A DNA stretch of 10,693 bases from a virus (taxonomy: Duplodnaviria; Heunggongvirae; Uroviricota; Caudoviricetes). The position numbers and the translations under genes are program-made. Shown piece after piece: positions 1 through 10,693 of the stretch. The first letter of the stretch is position 1; every line of letters begins with the position of its first letter. Below the pieces are notes generated by a model. It saw nothing but the letters and a program-made list of their open reading frames with translations, had not been told where the DNA came from and did no database searches. The stretch is taken from the IMG/VR virus record IMGVR_UViG_2585427787_000010. One strand, 5' to 3'.

Positions 1-1119
1 TCAAATAACCAACTTAACCCATTCCTGACCTCGAGTATCGTTATAGCGATCGGTGGTTGCCTGGACTTTATGCCCCAGTAATGTTTTTGTATCGACACCC
101 TGTGCCCGGTACAGCCGTTCTGACAGGGAACGTTGTTCATGAAATGTTGGTGGTGTTTTTCCTGCTGGTGGAATTATTCCAGCCAGGTCCCGTGCTTTGG
201 CAAAGTAATCGCTCAGGTTGTCTTTACTCATCGGCTTCGGTTGTTTCTGGTGCCGACTATGGATTAGATATGGACTTAATATTCTGTCTCGGCACCCATC
301 AATAACTTCTTTTAACGTTATCCCAATGGCATCACAGCGTAGTGTAAGCGGTAACGCCAGACGCATTCCGGTTTTTCCCTGGGTGATATGCAGGTGTTCG
401 TTCCACACATCTGAAAAACGCATGTGGCAAATGTCATCACGGCGCTGACCAGTAACAATCGCAAGAAGCATTGCGTTACGGATAAAGTGTTTTTCAGGCG
501 TTGCGTTGTAAATTTTTTGCCAGTCTTCCAGGGTGAGCCTGGCTCTGGTTACTTTAGGGATCGGTTTACGGGTAGCCTCCGGAGGATTCCATCCAGGAGG
601 AACTTCCCCTGCATGCTGTGCTTCTTTATAAATATCAACCCATAATCCACGATTTACTCTCGCTGTGCTGACCATGTCTTTATCCAGCCACTCATCCAGT
701 ATTAATGCAAAGTCTCTTACTTCCAGTTCTTTCAATGGGTGGTTTCCCAGACGGGAAACCAGGTATGCAGCCATTCGGGCTTTTTCTTTGTGAGTTGTAG
801 TTGCAATATCCCCATTTTTCAGTCGCGTGTCCTGTATTTTCAGATATCGATCAACCCATGCCTTTAATCTGATACCCCGACGTTTTGTTGCTGACGGACT
901 TTCATCAATTTTGCGCATGAAATATTCAGCTTCTGCTGCAGCTATTCGCTGATTGGCTGTGGAAGCGATTTTTTCTGCTTTGCCTTTGTCTGTTCCGAGA
1001 CCGTGAAATTTTCCAGTCACAGGGTTTTTATACTGGTAGTAAACCCTGCCAGTTCTGCGATCAAACTTTTCGTAAAGACCGGTTACGTCAGTGCTGTTTT
1101 TTCGTGGCCTCGGTGACAT
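1..1119 (-). CDS. int: Phage integrase, lambda-type tyrosine recombinase (372 aa)
   Basis: Complete ORF (ATG at 1119, stop at 1-3). C-terminus ...LLGHKVQATTDRYNDTRGQEWVKLVI resembles the lambda Int C-terminus carrying the tyrosine nucleophile. The 5' end is overlapped by an excisionase-like gene, the classic xis-int arrangement. AAGGAG lies about 10 nt upstream of the ATG. Confidence 0.9.
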   Translation of the reverse strand: MSPRPRKNSTDVTGLYEKFDRRTGRVYYQYKNPVTGKFHGLGTDKGKAEKIASTANQRIAAAEAEYFMRKIDESPSATKRRGIRLKAWVDRYLKIQDTRLKNGDIATTTHKEKARMAAYLVSRLGNHPLKELEVRDFALILDEWLDKDMVSTARVNRGLWVDIYKEAQHAGEVPPGWNPPEATRKPIPKVTRARLTLEDWQKIYNATPEKHFIRNAMLLAIVTGQRRDDICHMRFSDVWNEHLHITQGKTGMRLALPLTLRCDAIGITLKEVIDGCRDRILSPYLIHSRHQKQPKPMSKDNLSDYFAKARDLAGIIPPAGKTPPTFHEQRSLSERLYRAQGVDTKTLLGHKVQATTDRYNDTRGQEWVKLVI

Positions 1120-3890: not shown

Positions 3891-4013
3891 TTTGTTTTAA
3901 CCTCATGACAGATTTAAGGATGAACAAATCCCTGCCATTGCTGGCATATAAGAATCAAATCTGATGTATTCATTAAGCTGAATGTCGTATTGTGGCAGTT
4001 ATTTTATTACTGC

Positions 4014-4235
4014 TCACCATGACTCTGCTTTTACAGGTAAACCATCACGACCAAGGAAGACTTTAATCATGGTTTCCTTAATACAGTGTTGTGTGGAAAA
4101 ATCACGAATATAGAGCCGTTGTTTTTTAATGTTGTTTACCGAAGCAATATATGTTCTTCCTTTATGAATAACATAATCACCGGGAGTCACGCACTGACGA
4201 GGAATCTCATCAGTTCCGAAGTGATGAGCAATCAT
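4014..4235 (-). CDS. Small protein (73 aa) at the dicB/kilR position downstream of DicF; possible KilR-type cell-division inhibitor (tentative)
   Basis: ORF begins MEIIM...; the second ATG (4235) has a good SD (GGAG, 6-nt spacer) and gives 73 aa, the size of Rac KilR. It lies immediately downstream of the DicF-like sRNA, where Qin has dicB and Rac has kilR. The sequence does not match my recollection of DicB. Function is inferred from position and size only. Confidence 0.5.
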
Positions 4236-4409
4236 AATTATCTCCATTTTTACAAATGAACTTTGTTGATGCGGTGCCTGGTGCCTCCAGGTGACGTTAA
4301 CCAGTTAACAATTAACGCCGGATACAGAGAACCCACCCATAACACTGTTTTTGGTTTTAACTGTTCCGCGTGCGCTCAGCCGCATTCACCGCATCACAAA
4401 ACTCACTTT

Positions 4410-4467
4410 AAAAAGGGCGGCAGACCAGTCACGGAGTAAAACTGATACCGCCAAACGTCACCAGAAA
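4410..4467 (-). ncRNA. dicF: DicF-like small regulatory RNA (prophage sRNA that targets ftsZ mRNA in E. coli)
   Basis: Minus-strand sequence UUUUCUGGUGACGUUUGGCGGUAUCAGUUUUACUCCGUGACUGGUCUGCCGCCCUUUUU matches E. coli DicF as I recall it, with about one difference. It ends in a GC-rich hairpin (GGCGG...CCGCC) followed by U5, an intrinsic terminator. It sits in an ORF-free region of the leftward operon. Confidence 0.75.
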
Positions 4468-4801
4468 ATTGATAACAGAGGGCGTTGCAGCGGGGTTGTC
4501 ACTTAAGCGTATGGTCAACCTGACAACCCGGTGTCCTCAAGGGGGAAGAAATACCCCCGCCATACTTACCGCCGCGCCATTTCGCGGAGTGCCACAACCG
4601 GAAGCGCACGGTCGACGAAAATTTAACGACAGGCTATCTATGAACCAGCTACCTCGCCGTGCGCTTTCGCGTTATGGTCTGACTTTTCAGGGAAATATCC
4701 TTTCAGTAAACTGTCAGTGCCGGATGCTCACCCGTGTCCGGCGCACGCACTCCACCTCACCCGTGGAGAACTCCTTAATCACCAACCCTCAGGAGGGTGA
4801 A

Positions 4802-5077
4802 ATGTCGACTGAAAATGATGAAATCATTAACTCCCTGATACGCCAGATTAATAATTTTGATAAAGCATTGCAGCATGCTGCGGCGCGTAGTGATATAACT
4901 CTTTTAGCAATTTCATTTCTTGCATCTGTAATGGATAAAAATGAAGTCGTACGACAGAGTCTTGTTGATTATATCGACTCGCTTCAACCAGGCACTTTCA
5001 ATCATGAGAGCTTCAATCATGAGAAAGAGCATGTTAAATCTGTAATTAATTCTCTTGTTTTGAATCAAAAGAATTAA
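4802..5077 (+). CDS. Hypothetical small protein (91 aa), antisense-oriented moron inside the leftward early operon
   Basis: Strong SD AGGAGGGTGAA immediately before the ATG at 4802; AT-rich coding sequence; predicted intrinsic terminator about 25 nt after the stop. The upstream in-frame extension (4469-4801) is GC-rich and Arg/Pro-rich and looks non-coding. The protein is helical with an FNHESFNHE repeat and no recognisable family. Confidence 0.6.
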   Translation: MSTENDEIINSLIRQINNFDKALQHAAARSDITLLAISFLASVMDKNEVVRQSLVDYIDSLQPGTFNHESFNHEKEHVKSVINSLVLNQKN

Positions 5078-5375
5078 TGCTTTTTGTTGCAAGGTGATTT
5101 TCAAGGGGTTCTATTCGAATCCCTTTCTTTTTCATTAACAAGCCAAACCCCTTATCAATGATGTCCATTAGATCCAGGAAGTATTTTTCATGTAAATCCA
5201 GGTTATCAGAGAGCTGCTTCTCTTCGTACAGACCGATAAAGGCACGACGCACGTTACCGGATATAGTATCGATGGTTTCTTTTTCTACGGTACTCAGGTC
5301 AAGAGTCGCCAGTTGGGAACGAACTATATTCGCTGCCATTTCCTGGAATTGCATTGGTAAATCTTTAAATTCCAT
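5046..5375 (-). CDS. Hypothetical acidic helical protein (109 aa); 3' end overlaps the convergent 4802-5077 gene by 32 bp
   Basis: ATG at 5375 with GAGG about 7 nt upstream; AT-rich composition matching the neighbouring plus-strand gene; occupies the position of the small ydfB/ydfC or ydaG-type early genes. The ORF runs through the plus-strand terminator hairpin, so the true 3' end is uncertain. Confidence 0.5.
   Translation of the reverse strand: MEFKDLPMQFQEMAANIVRSQLATLDLSTVEKETIDTISGNVRRAFIGLYEEKQLSDNLDLHEKYFLDLMDIIDKGFGLLMKKKGIRIEPLENHLATKSINSFDSKQEN
5103..5132 (+). terminator. Putative Rho-independent terminator for the 4802-5077 gene
   Basis: Imperfect stem (AAGGGGTTC / GAA(T)CCCTT) with a 5-nt loop, followed by CTTTTT on the plus strand. 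Confidence 0.45.
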
Positions 5376-5397
5376 TATTAGCCTCGTTGGTTAGCTA

Positions 5398-5616
5398 TTA
5401 ACGCGGGCATGTAATCATTCTGGCAATGCTTAATGCCGCTGCTTTTTCCAGCCTGGTGATATCCTGCTCCAGAGCGGACAGATTTTCAGCCTGCTTAGCC
5501 TTGGCTTCATTGGCCCATTTCAGATCCTGCGCTGCATTAATTTTCTGGCGCATCCACTCATAAAGTTCATCATCGGTATAGTCTGGCGCGATGATGACGG
5601 GTTCTCGTTTCTGCAT
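5398..5616 (-). CDS. Small early-operon protein (72 aa), YdfA/YdaF-like (DUF1391-type), first gene after the PL-like promoter
   Basis: ATG at 5616 preceded by GAGGAA; motif ...YEWMRQKINAAQDLKWANEAKAKQAENLSALEQDI... resembles the small Rac/Qin early proteins as I recall them. Position is directly downstream of the repressor, as for ydfA in Qin. Confidence 0.6.
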   Translation of the reverse strand: MQKREPVIIAPDYTDDELYEWMRQKINAAQDLKWANEAKAKQAENLSALEQDITRLEKAAALSIARMITCPR

Positions 5617-5812
5617 ACTGATTCCTCGCGGTGCTGTTTCCCCTTAACGCCGGGGTAGCGGAACAAAAACCTGCTGCATAGTTATTAAAGTTGAACCCTG
5701 CCGTCATGTTCTTACGCCTCGGGCTGGCTACTTAACCCCTGACCACTGCCTGGTAACTCGAAGTATTGCCCTGCATTCTGTGGGGCGGGGTGGGTTGGTA
5801 TGAAAAGAAGGA

Positions 5813-5849
5813 TACCCATAGGTATTTAAAAAGTAAATACCTATGGGTA
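5813..5849. promoter_or_regulatory. Perfect 16-bp inverted repeat with 5-bp spacer, containing two TACC-N4-GGTA dyads; candidate OL-type operator and/or terminator of the repressor transcript
   Basis: tacccataggtattta-aaaag-taaatacctatgggta is directly readable. It lies between the repressor stop (5892) and the leftward early genes, with T-rich flanks on both strands. The same TACC-N4-GGTA motif recurs in the repressor/cro divergent region. Confidence 0.55.
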
Positions 5850-5891
5850 AATTTTTGCGGTGTCTTAACTGGTGACTAGTTGTTTGGTGAG

Positions 5892-6311
5892 CTATGATGC
5901 GTTTTGTGCTTTCTTTTTACGGATTTCTTCGTAGATCATATTGTAATACTGTTTTTTCTCTTCAAGAGTTTTTAATAATTTATCCGCTTCACTTTCTGGC
6001 AGTTCGTCTAAGAGATCTAAAAAAATACGTTGTCGTGGCGTTAGAACCCTTGTTTCATAACTGGAGGCTGTGTTCGTTGATGATGAAACGATACCATCCA
6101 TCCATCCCCGGGGTAACCCAAAGGACTCTTCGATAATCTCCACCATATCATCAGCGATCCGTTTTTTTCCCTTTTTCCCCTCTGGGTACAACATTCTTGA
6201 TACATAAGAAGGCTCGCGCCCGATCTTTCTGGCCACGTTAACCGCTTTACCATCGCATTTCTCATCACGAATTTTGATGAGTTGCTGTCGTCTAAATTCA
6301 TATTTGTCCAT
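5892..6311 (-). CDS. Prophage immunity repressor, DicA/RacR-like HTH protein (139 aa), without a peptidase S24 domain
   Basis: HTH-like segment NVARKIGREPSYVSRML; C-terminal LTPRQRIFLDLLDELPESEADKLLKTL resembles the DicA C-terminus (..LELLELFNALPESEQD..) as recalled; divergent from a Cro-like gene. No Ala-Gly / Ser...Lys LexA-type cleavage motifs are apparent. Confidence 0.8.
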   Translation of the reverse strand: MDKYEFRRQQLIKIRDEKCDGKAVNVARKIGREPSYVSRMLYPEGKKGKKRIADDMVEIIEESFGLPRGWMDGIVSSSTNTASSYETRVLTPRQRIFLDLLDELPESEADKLLKTLEEKKQYYNMIYEEIRKKKAQNAS

Positions 6312-6411
6312 AGGTAAATAATAGATGCGATTACCGCAAGGTAAACAACCTGTGGGTATTGACTTTTGTTTACCTGTGGGTATTCTTTGCTGTGTTTACT
6401 AAGGAGTAGCT
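6312..6411. promoter_or_regulatory. Divergent promoter/operator region between the repressor and the cro-like gene
   Basis: Direct repeats acctgtgggtatt at 6348-6360 and 6372-6384, each a TACC-N4-GGTA-type dyad. Inverted repeat aggtaaacaa (6339-6348) / ttgtttacct (6366-6375). Candidate sigma70 elements TTGACT (6359-6364) and TATTCT (6381-6386) overlap the repeats. AAGGAG SD at 6401-6406 precedes the ATG at 6412. Confidence 0.6.
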
Positions 6412-6693
6412 ATGGAAGAATTAAGAATATTTCTCAATTCTCTTTCGTCAGATGAACAGCGTATGTTTGCATGCGAGTGTGGTACCAGCATCGGTTATCT
6501 AAGAAAGGCATTGAGTAAAGGTCAAGTGTTAGGGGCATCGTTATGTGTCCTTATTGAGCGAGCCAGTAATGGTGAAGTTACACGTCAGCAACTAAGGCCT
6601 TTTGATTGGATGAATATTTGGCCCGAGCTGGAAGATACCAAAACGTTAACACAACCACTTTCTAGGAGCTTGATTCATGAAAATCAAGCATGA
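6412..6693 (+). CDS. Cro-like HTH regulator of the DicC/YdaS family (93 aa)
   Basis: Divergent from the repressor; motif ...ASLCVLIERASNGEVTRQQLRPFDW parallels YdaS ..ERCPAIERATRGEVLCEELRPD.. as recalled; good SD. Confidence 0.75.
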   Translation: MEELRIFLNSLSSDEQRMFACECGTSIGYLRKALSKGQVLGASLCVLIERASNGEVTRQQLRPFDWMNIWPELEDTKTLTQPLSRSLIHENQA

Positions 6694-7102
6694 ACACATC
6701 CGCATGGCGATGAATGTCTGGGCGCATCCGGACGGCGAAAAAGTGCCGGCTGCGAAAATTACCAAAGCGTATTTCGAGCTGGGAATGACGTTCCCGGAAC
6801 TGTATGACGACAGCCATCCGGAAGCCCTGGCTCGCAATACTCAGAAAATTTTCCGCTGGGTGGAGAAAGACACCCCTGATGCGGTTAAAAAAATTCAGGC
6901 GTTGTTACCAGCTATCGAAAAAGCAATGCCACCTCTGCTGGTGGCCCGAATGCGCAGTCATAGCTCAGCCTATTTTCGGGAACTAGTGGAGACGCGGGAA
7001 CGACTGGTGAGAGACGCTGATGATTTTGTCGCAGTGGCGATCGCTGGTTTCAACCAGATGAATCGTGGTGGCCCTGCAGGAAATATTGTGGCTGTGCATT
7101 GA
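6677..7102 (+). CDS. YdaT-like protein (141 aa), CII-analog regulator historically annotated as a toxin
   Basis: Begins MKIKHEHI... and ends ...VAVH, with a size typical of Rac YdaT; overlaps the upstream YdaS-like gene by 17 nt, indicating coupling. Confidence 0.7.
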   Translation: MKIKHEHIRMAMNVWAHPDGEKVPAAKITKAYFELGMTFPELYDDSHPEALARNTQKIFRWVEKDTPDAVKKIQALLPAIEKAMPPLLVARMRSHSSAYFRELVETRERLVRDADDFVAVAIAGFNQMNRGGPAGNIVAVH

Positions 7103-7173
7103 CTCGCAATATTCATACCGGATCACTTCCGGCAATTTGTGAGTAAAAAGATTCGGTATCAAAAGAGGTGAGT

Positions 7174-8244
7174 ATGGCTAACGCCTGGCTCAGATTATGG
7201 CATGACATGCCAAATGACCCTAAGTGGCGAACAATTGCCAGGGTGTCAGGGCAGCCAATTGCAACAGTGATGGCAGTGTATATCCACCTCCTGGTGAGCG
7301 CGTCACGAAATGTCACGCGAGGTCACATTGATGTCACGACAGAAGATTTGGCAAGTGCGCTCGACGTGACAGAAGAGGTAATTGATTCAATTTTGCAGAC
7401 GATGCAGGGGCGGGTACTTGATGGTGATTTAATCACTGGATGGGAAAAACGCCAGGTGCTTAAAGAGGACAACGGCAATATTTCGCAAACCGCAAAATCT
7501 CCTGCAGAGCGCAAGAGGGCGCAGCGAGAGAGGGAAAGAAAGCGGGAACAAAATGGCGATTGTCACGGCGCGTCACGAAATGTCACGCACATGTCACGAC
7601 GAGTCACGACAGATAAAGATACAGATAAAGATACAGATCAAGAAGATCAAAACACTATGGTCCATGGCGTAAAAAACGCCACGAACCAGGCAGGGGATGT
7701 TCAGACCGTCAATCCTGGTCAGCCAGCAGGCACGACACCGGAAGCCGATTCAGCGTATGCGCTGAAAGCCGATTCGGGCGCTGTGCAGCAGGTGATGACC
7801 GCAAGGCCGGAGCAATCACACCAACTGCAGCAGCCTGAAGCCGATTCCGCCATTCAGCGGGAAGCCGATCGGGTAGTCCCGGAAAACACCGGGCAGCCTG
7901 TGAGACGAGTGGATTATCCGGATGTGTTCGAACAGGTCTGGCGGGAATACCCGTTGCGTGCTGGGGCAAACCCGAAGAAATCCGCTTTCAGTGCCTGGAA
8001 GGCCAGATTACGCGAGGGGGTGTCACCAGAGGCCATGCTGGATGGCGTGAGGCGTTACGCAAGATACCTTGCGGCTACCGGGAAAACGGGAACGGAATTT
8101 GTTCAGCGAGCGACGACGTTTTTTGGACCGGACCGGAATTTTGAAAACCCCTGGCTGCTCCCGGTAAGCGGCACGAACAACCAGCGTTGTGTGAATCATA
8201 TTTCTGAACCGGATACCGAAATTCCACCGGGCTTCAGGGGGTAA
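7174..8244 (+). CDS. Replication initiator / replisome organiser (lambda O-like role; YdaU/DUF1376-like), about 356 aa from ATG 7174
   Basis: SD AGAGG 5 nt before the ATG at 7174 (the ORF track starts at a GTG at 7168). N-terminus ANAWLRLWHDMPNDPKWRTIA is typical of phage replication organisers. The gene contains two clusters of GTCACG iterons plus an AT-rich repeat, as lambda ori sits inside O. It follows the immunity region. Confidence 0.75.
   Translation: MANAWLRLWHDMPNDPKWRTIARVSGQPIATVMAVYIHLLVSASRNVTRGHIDVTTEDLASALDVTEEVIDSILQTMQGRVLDGDLITGWEKRQVLKEDNGNISQTAKSPAERKRAQRERERKREQNGDCHGASRNVTHMSRRVTTDKDTDKDTDQEDQNTMVHGVKNATNQAGDVQTVNPGQPAGTTPEADSAYALKADSGAVQQVMTARPEQSHQLQQPEADSAIQREADRVVPENTGQPVRRVDYPDVFEQVWREYPLRAGANPKKSAFSAWKARLREGVSPEAMLDGVRRYARYLAATGKTGTEFVQRATTFFGPDRNFENPWLLPVSGTNNQRCVNHISEPDTEIPPGFRG
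7298..7342. repeat. Iteron cluster 1: four GTCAC(G/A) repeats at about 10-11 bp spacing, inside the replication gene
   Basis: GTCACG at 7302, 7312 and 7333, with a GTCACA variant at 7322; the first 21 bp (gcgcgtcacgaaatgtcacgc) are identical to the start of cluster 2. Confidence 0.7.
7561..7650. repeat. Iteron cluster 2 (five GTCACG repeats) followed by an AT-rich tandem repeat (gataaagataca x2); candidate origin of replication
   Basis: GTCACG at 7562, 7572, 7582, 7593 and 7604, spaced about one helical turn apart; immediately followed by agataaagatacagataaagatacagatcaagaagatcaa (7611-7650). Confidence 0.7.
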
Positions 8245-8284
8245 GTGTTGATTTCTGGTCATGAGGTAATTTTCAGGAGGACTT

Positions 8285-8707
8285 GTGGCAAAAGTTTTTA
8301 CACAAGAAGAGCGGGAAAAAATTAAAGGGCAGGTTGTTGAACTCGTACGCCAGAGTGGGCGCGAGACGTTACGACAACTGGAAACTAAAACTGGGGCAAC
8401 AAGATATCTGATGAGCGTTCTGGCCAGAGAGCTGGTTGCCAGTGGCGATGTATACAACTCTGGTTACGGGTTATTCCCGTCTGAACAGGCGCGTAAGGAC
8501 TGGCAAAATGCCCGTAAAAAGCTCTCAAGGGCAAAGCTGAAGAAACCATCTGCGGTTGATCCGGACCTTATCTGGTCATTACCTGACGGAGAAATACGTC
8601 GCTACGACAGGCGTCAGAACATAATCTGTCGCGAGTGCCGGAAGAGTGAGGTTATGCAGCGAGTGCTGGCGTTTTATCAGGGTAATTTTCAGGAGGTGAT
8701 GGCGTGA
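8285..8707 (+). CDS. Ren-like protein (140 aa); lambda Ren family, tentative
   Basis: GTG start 4-5 nt after AGGAGG; C-terminal RECRKSEVMQRVLAFYQG resembles lambda Ren ..KECRQSAAMKRVLAVYG.. as recalled; HTH-like N-terminal segment; sits after the replication gene where lambda has ren. Confidence 0.5.
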   Translation: MAKVFTQEEREKIKGQVVELVRQSGRETLRQLETKTGATRYLMSVLARELVASGDVYNSGYGLFPSEQARKDWQNARKKLSRAKLKKPSAVDPDLIWSLPDGEIRRYDRRQNIICRECRKSEVMQRVLAFYQGNFQEVMA

Positions 8708-9000
8708 GAGTGAGAGTCTATATCGCCGGTCCAATGACCGGGTATAAAAATTTCAACCGTGAGGCGTTTCACAATGCGGAAGAGGAACTGAAACGGGAAG
8801 GGCATACCGTTTTAAATCCGGCTGTGCTTCCGGATGGGCTGACACAGCCGCACTACATGGATATTTGCATGGCAATGATTCGTTGTGTGGATGCGATTTA
8901 CATGCTGAAAGGCTGGCAGCGGTCAGCAGGTGCTAAGGCAGAACTGGCGCTGGCGGAGAAACTGGGGCATGCAGTTATTTTCCAGGAGGAGGTACAGTGA
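8704..9000 (+). CDS. DUF4406-like protein, nucleoside 2-deoxyribosyltransferase-like fold (98 aa)
   Basis: N-terminal VYIAGPMTG motif and ...VLNPA...DAIYMLKGWQRSAGAKAELALAEKLG pattern are typical of the DUF4406 / deoxyribosyltransferase-like family. GTG start overlaps the upstream stop (GTGA), indicating translational coupling. Confidence 0.7.
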   Translation: MRVRVYIAGPMTGYKNFNREAFHNAEEELKREGHTVLNPAVLPDGLTQPHYMDICMAMIRCVDAIYMLKGWQRSAGAKAELALAEKLGHAVIFQEEVQ

Positions 9001-9323
9001 ATATCGACGCAACAATGACGATTGGTACGGCCCTCAATACGGGGCTGGCGCTTCTTGGTTGGTGCTACATCATGTTCTGCTCATGGCGGTGGCTGTCACT
9101 GATGTTACTGAAAGAATGGAATAAACGCTGTAAACAGACGCAGCGGCAGAAGGCAATGAATGCGTTTTTTGAGACCTTCGATATTGACAGTATAGAACCA
9201 GGAGAGCCAGCTCGCGTGATTAGCAGAGGTGACGTTGTAATTCTTGTATACCGGAGTGAAGAGAAAGCAGTAACCGGCTCATTTAAACCGTCTGGTCTGT
9301 TTCCTCCGGCTCTACAAAAATAA
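8997..9323 (+). CDS. Small membrane protein (108 aa) with one N-terminal transmembrane helix
   Basis: GTG start overlapping the upstream stop, after GGAGGAGG; hydrophobic stretch IGTALNTGLALLGWCYIMFCSW; a hairpin (tgtccat-N8-atggaca) lies just after the stop. Confidence 0.55.
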   Translation: MNIDATMTIGTALNTGLALLGWCYIMFCSWRWLSLMLLKEWNKRCKQTQRQKAMNAFFETFDIDSIEPGEPARVISRGDVVILVYRSEEKAVTGSFKPSGLFPPALQK

Positions 9324-10000
9324 TGTCCATCATTTTTAATGGACACTATCGTATGAAACACCGGACCTGGATCACTGAAGCTTTACGTCTTCACTTTGAA
9401 GAACATTTACCCCGGGTTGTGGCCGGGCGTCGCCTGGGTGTACCAAAATCAACAGTTTGTAGTATGTTCGTGCGCTTTCGGAGAGCTGGCCTTTCGTGGC
9501 CTTTGCCCGCAGGCATGTCGGAGCAGGAACTTGATGCCTGCCTTTACGGACAATTTTCCACGGTACCAGTCGTACGTCCTGAAAGCACCGTTATATCCGA
9601 AGCCCCCGTGGTAAAAAAACGTCCCCGGCGGCCCAACTTCCCTTATGAGTTTAAAATCGCCTTAGTGGAGCAGTCACTGCAGCCCGGAGCCTGTGTGGCG
9701 CAGATCGCCCGGGAAAACGGAATCAACGATAACCTGCTCTTCAACTGGCGCCATCAATACCGGAAAGGTGGCCTGCTGCCTTCCGGAAAAAATATGCCGG
9801 CACTGCTTCCCGTGACGTTAACGCCGGAGCCGGATAATAAAATCCCGGCCCCCGCACAGGAACCAGAGCAGATAAATACACCGTCCGACAGTCTGTGTTG
9901 TGAGCTGGTTCTGCCGGCCGGAACTCTCAGGCTTAAAGGTAAACTGACGCCGGCGTTATTACAGACACTTATCCGCGAAATAAAAGGGAGCAGCCACTGA
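9323..10000 (+). CDS. tnpA: IS66-family TnpA (orf1)-like protein; true start uncertain (the N-terminal ~90 codons may belong to a different, disrupted gene or be an extension)
   Basis: C-terminal two-thirds (..KKRPRRPNFPYEFKIALVEQSLQPGACVAQIARENGINDNLLFNWRHQYRKG..) has the HTH-transposase pattern typical of IS66 orf1. The N-terminal part (RLHF...GLSWPLP...) looks like a separate IS21-IstA-like HTH. A possible GTG start at 9608 has no clear SD. Confidence 0.6.
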   Translation: MSIIFNGHYRMKHRTWITEALRLHFEEHLPRVVAGRRLGVPKSTVCSMFVRFRRAGLSWPLPAGMSEQELDACLYGQFSTVPVVRPESTVISEAPVVKKRPRRPNFPYEFKIALVEQSLQPGACVAQIARENGINDNLLFNWRHQYRKGGLLPSGKNMPALLPVTLTPEPDNKIPAPAQEPEQINTPSDSLCCELVLPAGTLRLKGKLTPALLQTLIREIKGSSH

Positions 10001-10347
10001 TGATATCTCTCCCTGCAGGTTCGCGTATCTGGCTGGTTGCAGGTATCACCGATATGCGAAATGGCTTTAACGGCCTGGCATCAAAAGTTCAGAACGTCCT
10101 GAAGGATGACCCGTTCTCCGGACACCTGTTCATCTTCCGCGGACGCCGGGGTGACCAGATAAAAGTGTTGTGGGCTGACAGTGACGGACTGTGCCTCTTC
10201 ACCAAACGCCTGGAGCGGGGCCGCTTCGTCTGGCCAGCCACCCGTGACGGCAAGGTGCACCTTACTCCGGCTCAGTTATCCATGCTTCTTGAAGGTATCA
10301 ACTGGAAGCACCCGAAACGAACGGAACGCGCTGGAATCCGCATATAA
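10000..10347 (+). CDS. tnpB: IS66-family accessory protein TnpB (orf2), 115 aa
   Basis: MISLPAGSRIWLVAGITDMRNGFNGLA...HLFIFRGRRGDQIKVLWADSDGLCLFTKRLE is characteristic of IS66 Orf2; its start overlaps the TnpA stop (TGATG). Confidence 0.9.
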   Translation: MISLPAGSRIWLVAGITDMRNGFNGLASKVQNVLKDDPFSGHLFIFRGRRGDQIKVLWADSDGLCLFTKRLERGRFVWPATRDGKVHLTPAQLSMLLEGINWKHPKRTERAGIRI

Positions 10348-10366
10348 CCCGTTGTAAAGTGAGGAT

Positions 10367-10693
10367 ATGGACACCTCACTTGCTCATGAGAACGCCCGCC
10401 TGCGGGCACTGTTGCAGACGCAACAGGACACCATCCGCCAGATGGCTGAATACAACCGCCTGCTCTCACAGCGGGTGGCGGCTTATGCTTCCGAAATCAA
10501 CCGGCTGAAGGCGCTGGTTGCGAAACTGCAACGTATGCAGTTCGGTAAAAGCTCAGAAAAACTTCGTGCAAAAACCGAACGGCAGATACAGGAAGCACAG
10601 GAGCGAATCAGCGCACTTCAGGAAGAAATGGCGGAAACGCTGGGTGAGCAATATGACCCGGTACTGCCATCCGCCCTGCGCCAGTCTTCAGCC
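10367..10693 (+). CDS. tnpC: IS66-family transposase TnpC (orf3), N-terminal 109 codons only (truncated by the window edge)
   Basis: ATG at 10367 after GTGAGGA; MDTSLAHENARLRALLQTQQD...LKALVAKLQRMQFGKSSEKL is the leucine-zipper N-terminus typical of IS66 transposases; the ORF is open to the end of the window. Confidence 0.85.
   Translation, partial: MDTSLAHENARLRALLQTQQDTIRQMAEYNRLLSQRVAAYASEINRLKALVAKLQRMQFGKSSEKLRAKTERQIQEAQERISALQEEMAETLGEQYDPVLPSALRQSSA

Follow-up and report, generated by a model that had tools for sequence, protein, structure and literature searches.

Three overlapping accessory genes with a repeated ribosome-binding element between rep and an IS66-family insertion in a probable Rac-like prophage of Escherichia coli

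Genes and features of the locus

The window, the whole 10,693-nucleotide stretch of DNA analysed here, carries three small genes on its + strand, g1, g2 and g3, preceded by a replication initiator or replisome-organizer gene, rep, and followed by the left part of an insertion element (Table 1). The gene order is int, exo, repressor, cro, a YdaT-like gene, rep and g1-g2-g3, with the late antiterminator gene Q next in intact relatives, which places the region between the replication gene and Q. The start of g1 lies 40 nt after rep, and the last 20 rep codons are part of a conserved block that also holds the upstream copy of the repeated 16-mer described below; rep residues 339-358 keep 95-100% identity even between loci that otherwise have different upstream genes. 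No promoter-like or terminator-like site was found on the + strand between a pR-like promoter at 6359-6386 and position 9500, and the three genes would be transcribed within the rightward early operon from this pR-like promoter before cro. The locus very probably opens the variable accessory region, the counterpart of ren plus nin in lambda, of an E. coli prophage of the Rac-like lambdoid type. The arrangement is an ordinary one that is already annotated, with 95-99.8% identity in 22 complete E. coli genomes.

Table 1. Features of the rep to IS66 region, in window coordinates.
Feature	Position	Strand	Evidence
rep, replication initiator / replisome-organizer gene	7168-8244	+	phrog_3729 'replication initiation protein', 7e-257; RefSeq 'phage replisome organizer'
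U, upstream 16-mer copy; intergenic U-rich tract and AGGAGG; RBS of g1, 4 nt before GTG 8285	8265-8280	+	exact match
g1, DUF977 / Ren-like, 140 aa	8285-8707	+	ORF list; Pfam PF06163, phrog_142
D, downstream 16-mer copy, in the g1 3' end; AGGAGG 7 nt before the g2 GTG	8681-8696	+	exact match
g2, DUF4406, 98 aa, minimal NDT/DNPH1/MilB-like alpha/beta fold (predicted)	8704-9000	+	ORF list; Pfam PF14359
Third, degenerate 16-mer copy; SD for g3	8974-8989 (8974-8992 with AGG)	+	3-mismatch match
g3 open reading frame	8997-9323	+	ORF list
g3 native part, DUF4752, 91 codons; GTGA overlap with g2	8997-9269	+	Pfam PF15944
IS66-family (ISCro1-like) element, left part	9270-10693	+	homology to intact prophage stops at 9269-9273
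IS genes: tnpA, tnpB, start of tnpC	9323-10000, 10000-10347,	+	Pfam HTH_Tnp_1, TnpB_IS66

The label Ren-like, given to g1 in the initial annotation, is borne out by profile searches: g1 matches PF06163 at 6e-32 (110.9 bits against a cut-off of 22.1, residues 1-136) and phrog_142, 'Ren-like exclusion protein', at 1.2e-48, and lambda Ren itself matches phrog_142 at 1.6e-41. In a direct BLASTP comparison only g1 residues 112-131 align, to Ren residues 73-92, with 11 of 20 positions identical (E = 2e-6, a single-comparison value), and the N-terminal similarity is visible only through profiles and the winged-helix fold. The protein is built of an N-terminal winged helix, a long helix and a C-terminal motif that it has in common with lambda Ren. 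Its AF2 model, made from a shallow alignment, has a pLDDT of 79, with values of at least 87 for residues 10-80 and low confidence in the C-terminal third; the best Foldseek matches of the model are MarR/GntR/IclR winged helices, and searches of PDB with the g1 sequence and profile gave nothing useful. The start at 8285 is confirmed by relatives with an ATG at the same position, and identity among the best 120 matches is 88-97%. We consider g1 a probable Ren-family winged-helix protein, presumably replication-associated. In lambda, the ren phenotype is protection from Rex exclusion. The DUF977 body is present in 76% of complete E. coli genomes.

For g2, the proposed nucleoside-deoxyribosyltransferase-like and DUF4406 label holds on two grounds, the match to PF14359 (128.8 bits against a cut-off of 22, profile positions 2-91 of 91) and the NDT/DNPH1-like predicted fold. 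The match to the Pfam family Nuc_deoxyrib_tr (PF05014) stays below threshold, at 13.3 against 28.8 bits, and a PDB search with the g2 sequence and profile found no match. The AF2 model has a pLDDT of 91.1 and a pTM of 0.84, and in a Foldseek search against PDB its top 40 matches are almost all NDT, DNPH1 or MilB proteins (probability 1.00, TMq 0.70-0.78). All 30 homologues compared share Y6, D53, S74, G76 and E80, which lie on the expected structural elements of the model. We regard g2 as a putative minimal NDT/DNPH1-like enzyme, probably a nucleotide or nucleoside N-glycosidase. Translation could begin at GTG 8704 or GTG 8710, and many homologues start two codons later; the start at 8704 is favored because of its spacing from the SD. 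A frameshift has made g2 a pseudogene in ATCC 43896, the closest relative.

The third gene matches PF15944 with 145 bits (cut-off 27) over residues 7-90. The initial annotation made it a single-pass membrane protein. Residues 7-38 are moderately hydrophobic, with a 19-residue Kyte-Doolittle mean of 1.2-1.4 that falls short of the classical 1.6 or so, and a +5 charge cluster comes after them; g3 is probably a small membrane-anchored protein. Intact relatives end in ...GAGAAAGCA TAA. Here an IS66-family element has inserted at the target site AGAAAGCA (9262-9269) and replaces the stop codon, so that positions 9270-9323 add 17 IS-encoded residues. The element is 99.8% identical over 1.43 kb to annotated IS66-like elements; the copy in E2865 starts with GTAACCGGCTC, ends in ...CGCTTAC and is flanked by an 8-bp duplication. 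The initial annotation, which extended the phage locus over 8265-9345, overlooked this element, and because the DNA from 9270 on belongs to it, neither the last 17 codons of the g3 open reading frame nor a hairpin at about 9316-9345 is part of the phage gene. None of the complete E. coli genomes in our collection spans the g3/IS junction. Insertion exactly before the g3 stop codon alters the C-terminus of g3 and would separate the early operon from Q by about 2.7 kb, and it probably leaves this prophage copy defective for late gene expression.

No informative NCBIfam match was found for any of the three proteins, and a search of PADLOC-DB 2.0 defence models returned no family at E <= 0.1. A literature search on DUF977, DUF4406, DUF4752 and LygF found no functional study, almost all matches being unrelated uses of the string. 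DUF977/Ren, DUF4406 and DUF4752 are all biochemically uncharacterised, though they are very common families.

A repeated SD-bearing element at the gene starts

The exact 16-mer GGTAATTTTCAGGAGG reported in the initial annotation occurs on the + strand as U and D, as sequence matching confirms. Allowing three mismatches at most, the window contains four matches where 0.09 would be expected, and no shuffle out of 200 gave as many as four. We reject a chance origin of the identity in view of the shuffles, the 11 identical nucleotides beyond the SD and the scarcity of the 16-mer in unrelated contexts noted below. One of the two further matches, at 5093-5108, is probably fortuitous. The other, GTTATTTTCCAGGAGG, is a third copy that precedes g3 and is absent from the initial list; it lies in the g2 3' end, in codons V-I-F-Q-E-E, and D encodes ...Q-G-N-F-Q-E-V within g1.

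The claim that each copy supplies the SD for the next gene, with the second copy inside g1, agrees with the spacing between the end of AGGAGG and the GTG start, which is 4 nt for g1, 7 nt for g2 and 4-7 nt for g3; the motifs inside the upstream genes lie at 8691-8696 and 8984-8992. The stop/start overlaps are likewise present at both junctions, as GTG 8704 with TGA 8705-8707 and GTG 8997 with TGA 8998-9000, so that the stop/start overlap (GTGA at 8704-8707 and 8997-9000) and the SD inside the upstream gene that characterize a translational chain are found together at both junctions. Folding of the 91-nt segments around the starts gave no advantage over shuffled sequence (z = -0.26, +0.80 and +0.35), and we found no RNA structure masking the SDs. 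The start sites look open, so independent initiation is possible; given the GTGA overlaps and the strong AGGAGG, ribosomes could either reinitiate after termination or bind afresh. We infer translational coupling, each gene being translated from a GTG start that overlaps the preceding stop behind a strong AGGAGG in a U-rich tract.

Among the 80 closest DUF977 loci in IMG/VR, a sample of redundant E. coli prophages, a rep-type or YdaW-type gene precedes DUF977 in every case, and the rep-U-DUF977 junction occurs in 50 of them, seen only where the upstream gene encodes a rep protein of the same C-terminal type. The D region of DUF977 is kept within two mismatches in 76 of the 80 loci, whichever of at least six different genes comes next, and an overlap between the DUF977 stop and the following start recurs with at least four different kinds of downstream gene. 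The third-copy sequence is similarly kept at DUF4406 3' ends regardless of the following gene, with homology ending right past the SD. Only three of 141 IMG/VR occurrences of the 16-mer lie in unrelated contexts, and on these sequence comparisons each copy is widespread on its own.

With high confidence we regard the 16-mer as a translation-initiation element, a U-rich tract plus SD, at mosaic gene boundaries. Two copies occupy the closing codons of the gene before (...F-Q-E = TTT/TTC CAG GAG G), and one is in the spacer after rep. As such the locus offers a clean example of a strong SD within the last codons of a gene, fixing a C-terminal ...F-Q-E and marking prophage mosaic joints. The 11-nt identity of U and D beyond the SD exceeds what ribosome-binding function alone explains. 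Compared by eye with DUF977 3' ends, of which it might be a relic, the U flank shows no convincing similarity past the 16 nt unless ad hoc gaps are allowed.

Linkage of the three genes and rival readings

Across 5,426 complete E. coli genomes there are 6,283 places with the DUF977 body, 1,482 with DUF4406 and 178 with DUF4752, and 22 of the genomes contain the contiguous trio. Among the IMG/VR loci (closest relatives only), DUF977 is followed by DUF4406 in 16 of 80, DUF4406 by DUF4752 in 22 of 80, and for DUF4752 the gene before is DUF4406 in 34 of 79. The neighbors found instead are PHROGs of unknown function, Ead-like proteins, a TraR zinc finger and MarR-like winged-helix proteins. A contig search with g1 using one genome per species yielded 12 loci, too few for statistics. 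DUF977 lies directly upstream in 69 of the 80 closest DUF4406 loci; this one-directional linkage is stronger than full independence predicts, and it is gone in more distant homologues. Those with 59-64% identity are found close to int, next to DNA methyltransferases and with no DUF977, and in an Edwardsiella prophage DUF4406 and DUF4752 are one gene apart. A database protein of 169 aa, P0012, has both a DUF4406 and a DUF4752 domain, a fusion that an artefactual frameshift in the GTGA overlap could have produced. Mosaic breakpoints fall at about 8575-8605 and about 8965-8995.

The initial annotation had suggested that the three proteins could form one anti-exclusion, nucleotide-modifying or exclusion cassette rather than replication genes. 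Both kinds of observation that it named as refuting this idea were made. Across other prophages the genes are not consistently adjacent; they occur independently, each with alternative neighbors, and they sit between the replication gene and Q, as ren and nin do in lambda. A cassette selected as a unit would be consistent with the tight GTGA coupling, the conservation of the trio in the 22 complete genomes, the presence of the same g2-g3 pair behind three diverged DUF977 alleles (99%, 68% and 55% identity) and the proximity of DUF4406 to DUF4752 in Edwardsiella. However, the copy numbers of the genes differ about 35-fold, the same overlap architecture connects each gene to several alternative neighbors, an unrelated D5-like HTH gene is also found ahead of DUF4406, and distant DUF4406 homologues lack both partners. 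The missing PADLOC matches and the g2 pseudogene in ATCC 43896 also argue against a cassette, which we consider extremely unlikely. A narrower proposal, that only g1 and g2 are a functional pair in which the Ren-type C-terminal motif would move and work with the NDT-like enzyme, draws on the frequent placement of the closest DUF4406 genes after DUF977 and on a high-identity block with DUF4406 that begins about 100-130 nt inside the DUF977 3' end, so that the Ren-like C-terminal motif moves with DUF4406. It is very unlikely in our judgment, since the converse linkage holds for only 16 of 80 DUF977 genes and is possible for at most 24% across E. coli genomes, in 11 of 80 cases the gene before DUF4406 is a non-Ren HTH gene, the DUF4406 genes beside methyltransferases manage without DUF977, and homologous recombination alone would give a crossover in the best-conserved part of diverged alleles. 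A fuller version, with the repeated U-rich SD element setting the stoichiometry of the pair and DUF4752 as an occasional third partner, is slightly less probable again. Were such a pair real, a winged-helix replication-associated protein might, for example, recruit or regulate a nucleotide N-glycosidase, which might counteract a host exclusion or defence system or clean the nucleotide pool.

The 16-bp direct repeats could also be mainly recombination substrates, serving module exchange or DUF977 excision rather than ribosome binding; conserved boundary sequences of this kind were reportedly proposed for lambdoid phages by Clark et al. in 2001. Both copies do lie at module boundaries and are about 410-419 bp apart in 21 of 120 IMG/VR loci, U marks the point where homology of the rep-type and YdaW-type left flanks of DUF977 begins, and sequences diverge at once past the SD at DUF977 and DUF4406 3' ends. 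Yet the left breakpoint of the g2 block is about 100 nt upstream of D and not at D, and the deletion product rep-16mer-DUF4406 is absent among the 141 occurrences of the 16-mer. U hardly varies between loci whereas D does so with codon changes, and the two therefore show no trace of having exchanged sequence; 16 bp is also very short for RecA-dependent recombination. We judge a primary role in recombination unlikely. Apparent 'rep-g2' loci, examined as candidate deletion products, in fact have the two genes separated by about 2 kb and a different HTH gene.

Taken together, we favor the reading of the three proteins as separate 'moron'-type accessory genes, which would be shuffled independently by recombination, with mosaic breakpoints probably at or near the SD-bearing gene boundaries.

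Comparison with known systems

For lambda it has been known since the 1980s that overlapping accessory genes form a chain behind the replication genes. The lambda ren and nin genes, the 'chain of interlinked genes' from P to Q, stand at the corresponding point of the rightward early operon, directly behind the replication genes and ahead of Q; there too a Ren-family gene comes first and small genes are linked by 4-nt stop/start overlaps, P and ren themselves overlapping by 4 nt. Apart from the Ren-family gene the content differs, with no NinB-NinI set in the part seen here; g1 has 140 aa and Ren 96 aa, with BLASTP similarity confined to a 20-residue C-terminal stretch, and the starts here are GTG (in GTGA) whereas those of lambda are mostly ATG. 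The lambda ren and nin genes are non-essential and polar on Q (PMC10695390).

Rac-type prophages provide a closer parallel. Phage Rac-SA53 has the order lygF (DUF977), rac19 (DUF4406) and ead, with 92.7% nucleotide identity across g1 and g2, the same GTGA junction and a D-type sequence. It differs in its upstream genes, ydaU/ydaV/ydaW in place of the single rep gene, in the RBS of lygF, which lacks a U copy, and in its third gene, which is Ead/Ea22-like where the present locus has DUF4752.

The g2 model shares the Rossmann-like fold of the NDT / DNPH1 (Rcl) / MilB superfamily, and g2 retains, besides an invariant Tyr following strand 1, a helix 2 Asp and an S-x-G-x-x-x-E segment; we take these Tyr, Asp and Glu residues to resemble the catalytic Tyr, Asp and Glu of the NDT, DNPH1 and MilB enzymes. 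At 98 aa, however, g2 is shorter than those proteins, which have 125-160 aa. The insertion element shares with ISCro1 its near-complete sequence identity, the tnpA-tnpB-tnpC order and the terminus, while its insertion site here, just before the stop codon of a DUF4752 gene, is new.

A Shine-Dalgarno element repeated at the gene junctions

The three genes that follow the replication gene, g1 (DUF977, Ren-like), g2 (DUF4406) and g3 (DUF4752), had been described as linked by GTGA start/stop overlaps and as carrying a duplicated 16-bp ribosome-binding segment. The overlaps are seen at the g1/g2 and g2/g3 junctions, and GGTAATTTTCAGGAGG occurs exactly at 8265-8280 (upstream copy) and at 8681-8696 (downstream copy, inside the 3' end of g1). 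With up to three mismatches allowed, the window contains four matches where 0.09 would be expected, a number not reached in any of 200 shuffles. An additional match, GTTATTTTCCAGGAGG at 8974-8989, lies before g3, and therefore the same type of element precedes all three genes; the remaining match, at 5093-5108, is probably a chance occurrence. The AGGAGG ends 4 nt before the GTG at 8285 and 7 nt before that at 8704, while AGGAGGAGG terminates 4 nt upstream of the GTG at 8997. An ATG at the equivalent position in relatives confirms where g1 starts. As many g2 homologues begin two codons further downstream, GTG 8710 is an alternative start for this gene; the Shine-Dalgarno spacing favours 8704. 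A two-codon mini-ORF flanking the upstream copy (ATG AGG TAA, 8261-8269) overlaps the start of the 16-mer, lacks an obvious Shine-Dalgarno sequence and is probably meaningless.

Features of the prophage region, in the coordinates of the window
Feature	Position	Strand	Remark
int	1-1119	-	
large exonuclease gene			between int and repressor in listed order
repressor	5892-6311	-	
pR-like promoter	6359-6386		
cro	6412		
YdaT-like gene			between cro and replication gene
single replication/replisome-organizer gene	7168-8244		followed by the trio
g1 ORF	8285-8707	+	
g2 ORF	8704-9000	+	
g3 ORF	8997-9323	+	final 17 codons are IS DNA
IS66-family (ISCro1-like) element	9270-10693		part inside the window

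In IMG/VR the exact 16-mer is present in at least 120 contigs, and two contexts account for 138 of its 141 occurrences. The upstream copy is found 20 nt ahead of the start of DUF977, within a block that begins in the final 20 codons of the replication gene on that side, and these codons are common to two otherwise different replication proteins; when a YdaW-like gene precedes DUF977, this copy is absent and a different ribosome-binding site is present (…GCCGGAGGCGCTT ATG). The downstream copy is the 3' end of DUF977, encoding …Q-G-N-F-Q-E-V. Among the 80 closest DUF977 loci in IMG/VR the upstream copy is exact in 50, the downstream copy in 31 and both in 20, and the downstream copy is within two mismatches in 76, regardless of the gene that follows. 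In every downstream context the DUF977 stop codon either overlaps the next start or lies immediately beside it. DUF4406 genes end in GTTATTTTCCAGGAGG or GTGATTTTTCAGGAGG whichever gene comes next, with the sequence diverging directly past the Shine-Dalgarno. This recurrence at gene ends identifies the motif as a U-rich tract plus Shine-Dalgarno sequence, reused at three successive boundaries, at two of which it doubles as F-Q-E codons.

The 16-mer copies share 11 identical bases that extend past the Shine-Dalgarno, which argues for descent from a common source or recombination rather than chance. The upstream copy is nearly invariant and the downstream copy changes with its codons, a pattern that gives no indication of exchange between the two, and no product of a deletion between them was found among the IMG/VR occurrences. 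The g2 block has its mosaic breakpoints at ~8575-8605, within the conserved 3' portion of DUF977, and at ~8965-8995, at the g2/g3 junction.

No promoter-like or terminator-like site was found on the + strand between the pR-like promoter and 9500. We propose that the trio is transcribed on the pR transcript after induction, and that each GTG start would be served by a strong Shine-Dalgarno sequence in the tail of the preceding gene, through reinitiation after termination, direct ribosome binding, or both. The RNA at the trio junctions is no more structured than in shuffles, so strict coupling is not required.

Protein families and their distribution

The Ren-like label for g1 holds: the protein matches PF06163 (DUF977) at 6e-32 and phrog_142, 'Ren-like exclusion protein', at 1e-48, and lambda Ren also matches phrog_142 (1.6e-41). 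By BLASTP only a 20-residue C-terminal stretch of g1 aligns with lambda Ren (11/20 identical). Its AF2 model (pLDDT 79; shallow alignment) comprises a confident winged helix (residues 7-63) and long helix (67-84) with a low-confidence C-terminal part, and Foldseek returns MarR/GntR/IclR-type winged helices with weak E-values. The nucleoside-deoxyribosyltransferase-like label for g2 agrees with a DUF4406 match at 1e-37 and with the fold of the predicted model (pLDDT 91), whose best PDB matches are nucleoside 2-deoxyribosyltransferases, DNPH1 and MilB (TMq 0.70-0.78); the Pfam NDT model gives only a below-threshold match. Residues Y6, D53, S74, G76 and E80 are invariant across 30 homologues, a pattern of conservation that we take to fit the Tyr/Asp/Glu catalytic set of the NDT/DNPH1/MilB superfamily. 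The DUF4406 gene is intact in the window and is annotated as a frameshifted pseudogene (6460-6755 of the prophage locus) in the closest complete genome, E. coli ATCC 43896. The g3 protein belongs to DUF4752 (7e-43); a moderately hydrophobic stretch (residues 7-38) precedes a +5 charge cluster, and a membrane anchor is plausible. All three are annotated families in RefSeq, and the same trio occurs in complete E. coli genomes at up to 99.8% identity.

The initial annotation had suggested that the trio forms a single anti-exclusion, nucleotide-modifying or exclusion cassette. At megablast sensitivity, in 5,426 complete E. coli genomes, the body of DUF977 is found in 6,283 places (4,097 genomes), that of DUF4406 in 1,482 (1,223 genomes) and that of DUF4752 in 178 (178 genomes); the contiguous trio, at ≥80% of the 1,101-nt query, is found in 22 genomes. 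For the 80 closest IMG/VR loci per gene, a redundant sample of the closest relatives, the neighbouring genes were defined with an ORF heuristic combined with BLAST clustering. DUF4406 follows DUF977 in 16 of 80 loci, and at least five further small genes (phrog_4030, phrog_1621, phrog_4659 and others) occur in its place. Upstream of DUF4406 stands DUF977 in 69/80 loci and a D5-like HTH gene in 11/80; downstream of it stands an Ead-like gene in 51 and DUF4752 in 22. Before DUF4752 (79 loci) stand DUF4406 (34), a MarR/Ren-like 96-aa winged-helix gene (31) or a TraR-type zinc-finger gene (13). DUF4406 genes at 59-64% identity lie in the int-proximal region of Enterobacter, Klebsiella and Edwardsiella prophages, with no DUF977 found near them there. 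PADLOC models gave no match to any of the three proteins. The distribution is mosaic; independent occurrence, which the initial annotation had itself named as evidence against its proposal, and nin-type placement are both found, and the single-cassette reading is therefore not supported. The sole notable association is directional, close DUF4406 genes being usually preceded by DUF977, and it is very improbable that the two form a functional pair. The three proteins would instead provide separate accessory functions.

The Enterobacter and Klebsiella DUF4406 genes (L376-L379, L381-L382) directly follow Dam/C5 or MT-A70 methyltransferase genes near int/xis, an adjacency that could point to some involvement with modified nucleotides. 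In an Edwardsiella prophage (L380, 2501-3685) DUF4406 and DUF4752 are one gene apart, separated by an Rv2179c-like exonuclease gene; this is a second, independent proximity of the two families. A 169-aa database protein (P0012; three member sequences, one short contig) contains both domains, and may be either a genuine fusion or the product of a single-base error at the GTGA overlap.

An IS66-family insertion at the end of g3

Homology of the window to the intact ATCC 43896 prophage stops at 9269-9273. In that prophage the antiterminator Q gene comes after the DUF4752 gene, which encodes 91 aa and ends in ...GAGAAAGCA TAA. The sequence of the window from 9270 onwards (GTAACCGGCTC...) shares 99.8% identity with IS66-family/ISCro1-like elements; the element in strain E2865 starts with identical bases and has an 8-bp duplication at its flanks. 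The end of homology and the start of the IS match therefore place an insertion between g3 codon 91 and its stop, at the target site AGAAAGCA (9262-9269). The g3 ORF now extends 17 codons into the element, crossing its left inverted repeat. The end at 9345 formerly given for the trio and the hairpin there are both IS DNA; the insertion had not been spotted. The element parts the early operon from the Q gene known from intact relatives, so that late functions are probably defective in this copy of the prophage; the insertion would change the C-terminus of g3 and, through polarity and distance, probably blocks expression of Q and the late genes.

The final A of the present g3 stop codon, TAA, is also the first base of the start codon ATG of the transposase-accessory gene tnpA (TAATG, 9321-9325), a gene that ribosomes of the phage operon could in principle reach after induction. 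In a group of IMG/VR relatives (downstream cluster 10, for example L346) DUF977 is followed by GTGAGCCAAATTAACAATCGG…GTGAAGAGAAAGCATAA, the start of an Ead-like gene fused to the final codons of DUF4752. This junction looks like a deletion scar and illustrates how frequently the region is rearranged.

Comparison with lambda and Rac

The ATCC 43896 prophage is 95-98% identical to the window outside the immunity region (~3960-6670; repressor, cro and small ORFs nearby), where the match is limited to two short patches, and their immunity modules therefore differ. The final 20-24 residues of the replication protein (8176-8244, residues ~335-358; …RCVNHISEPDTEIPPGFRG) recur at 95-100% identity in a 325-aa replication protein of other prophages that is otherwise different. 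They weakly match the C-terminal end of DnaT, a primosomal protein of the host (NCBIfam PRK02854, E 0.0015), and may be a shared docking tail for a host protein.

The trio occupies the position held in lambda by ren and the nin genes, and the region works like lambda ren-nin and is its positional homologue. In lambda, ren overlaps P by 4 nt. The nin genes, described as 'a chain of interlinked genes', are dispensable, and their disturbance has a polar effect on Q (PMC10695390). A 2021 preprint considers ren likely to be involved in replication and describes the Rex proteins as interacting with O and Ren in two-hybrid assays. The corresponding Rac region, lygF-rac19-ead in Rac-SA53, is likewise a positional homologue of the trio region and works in the same way.
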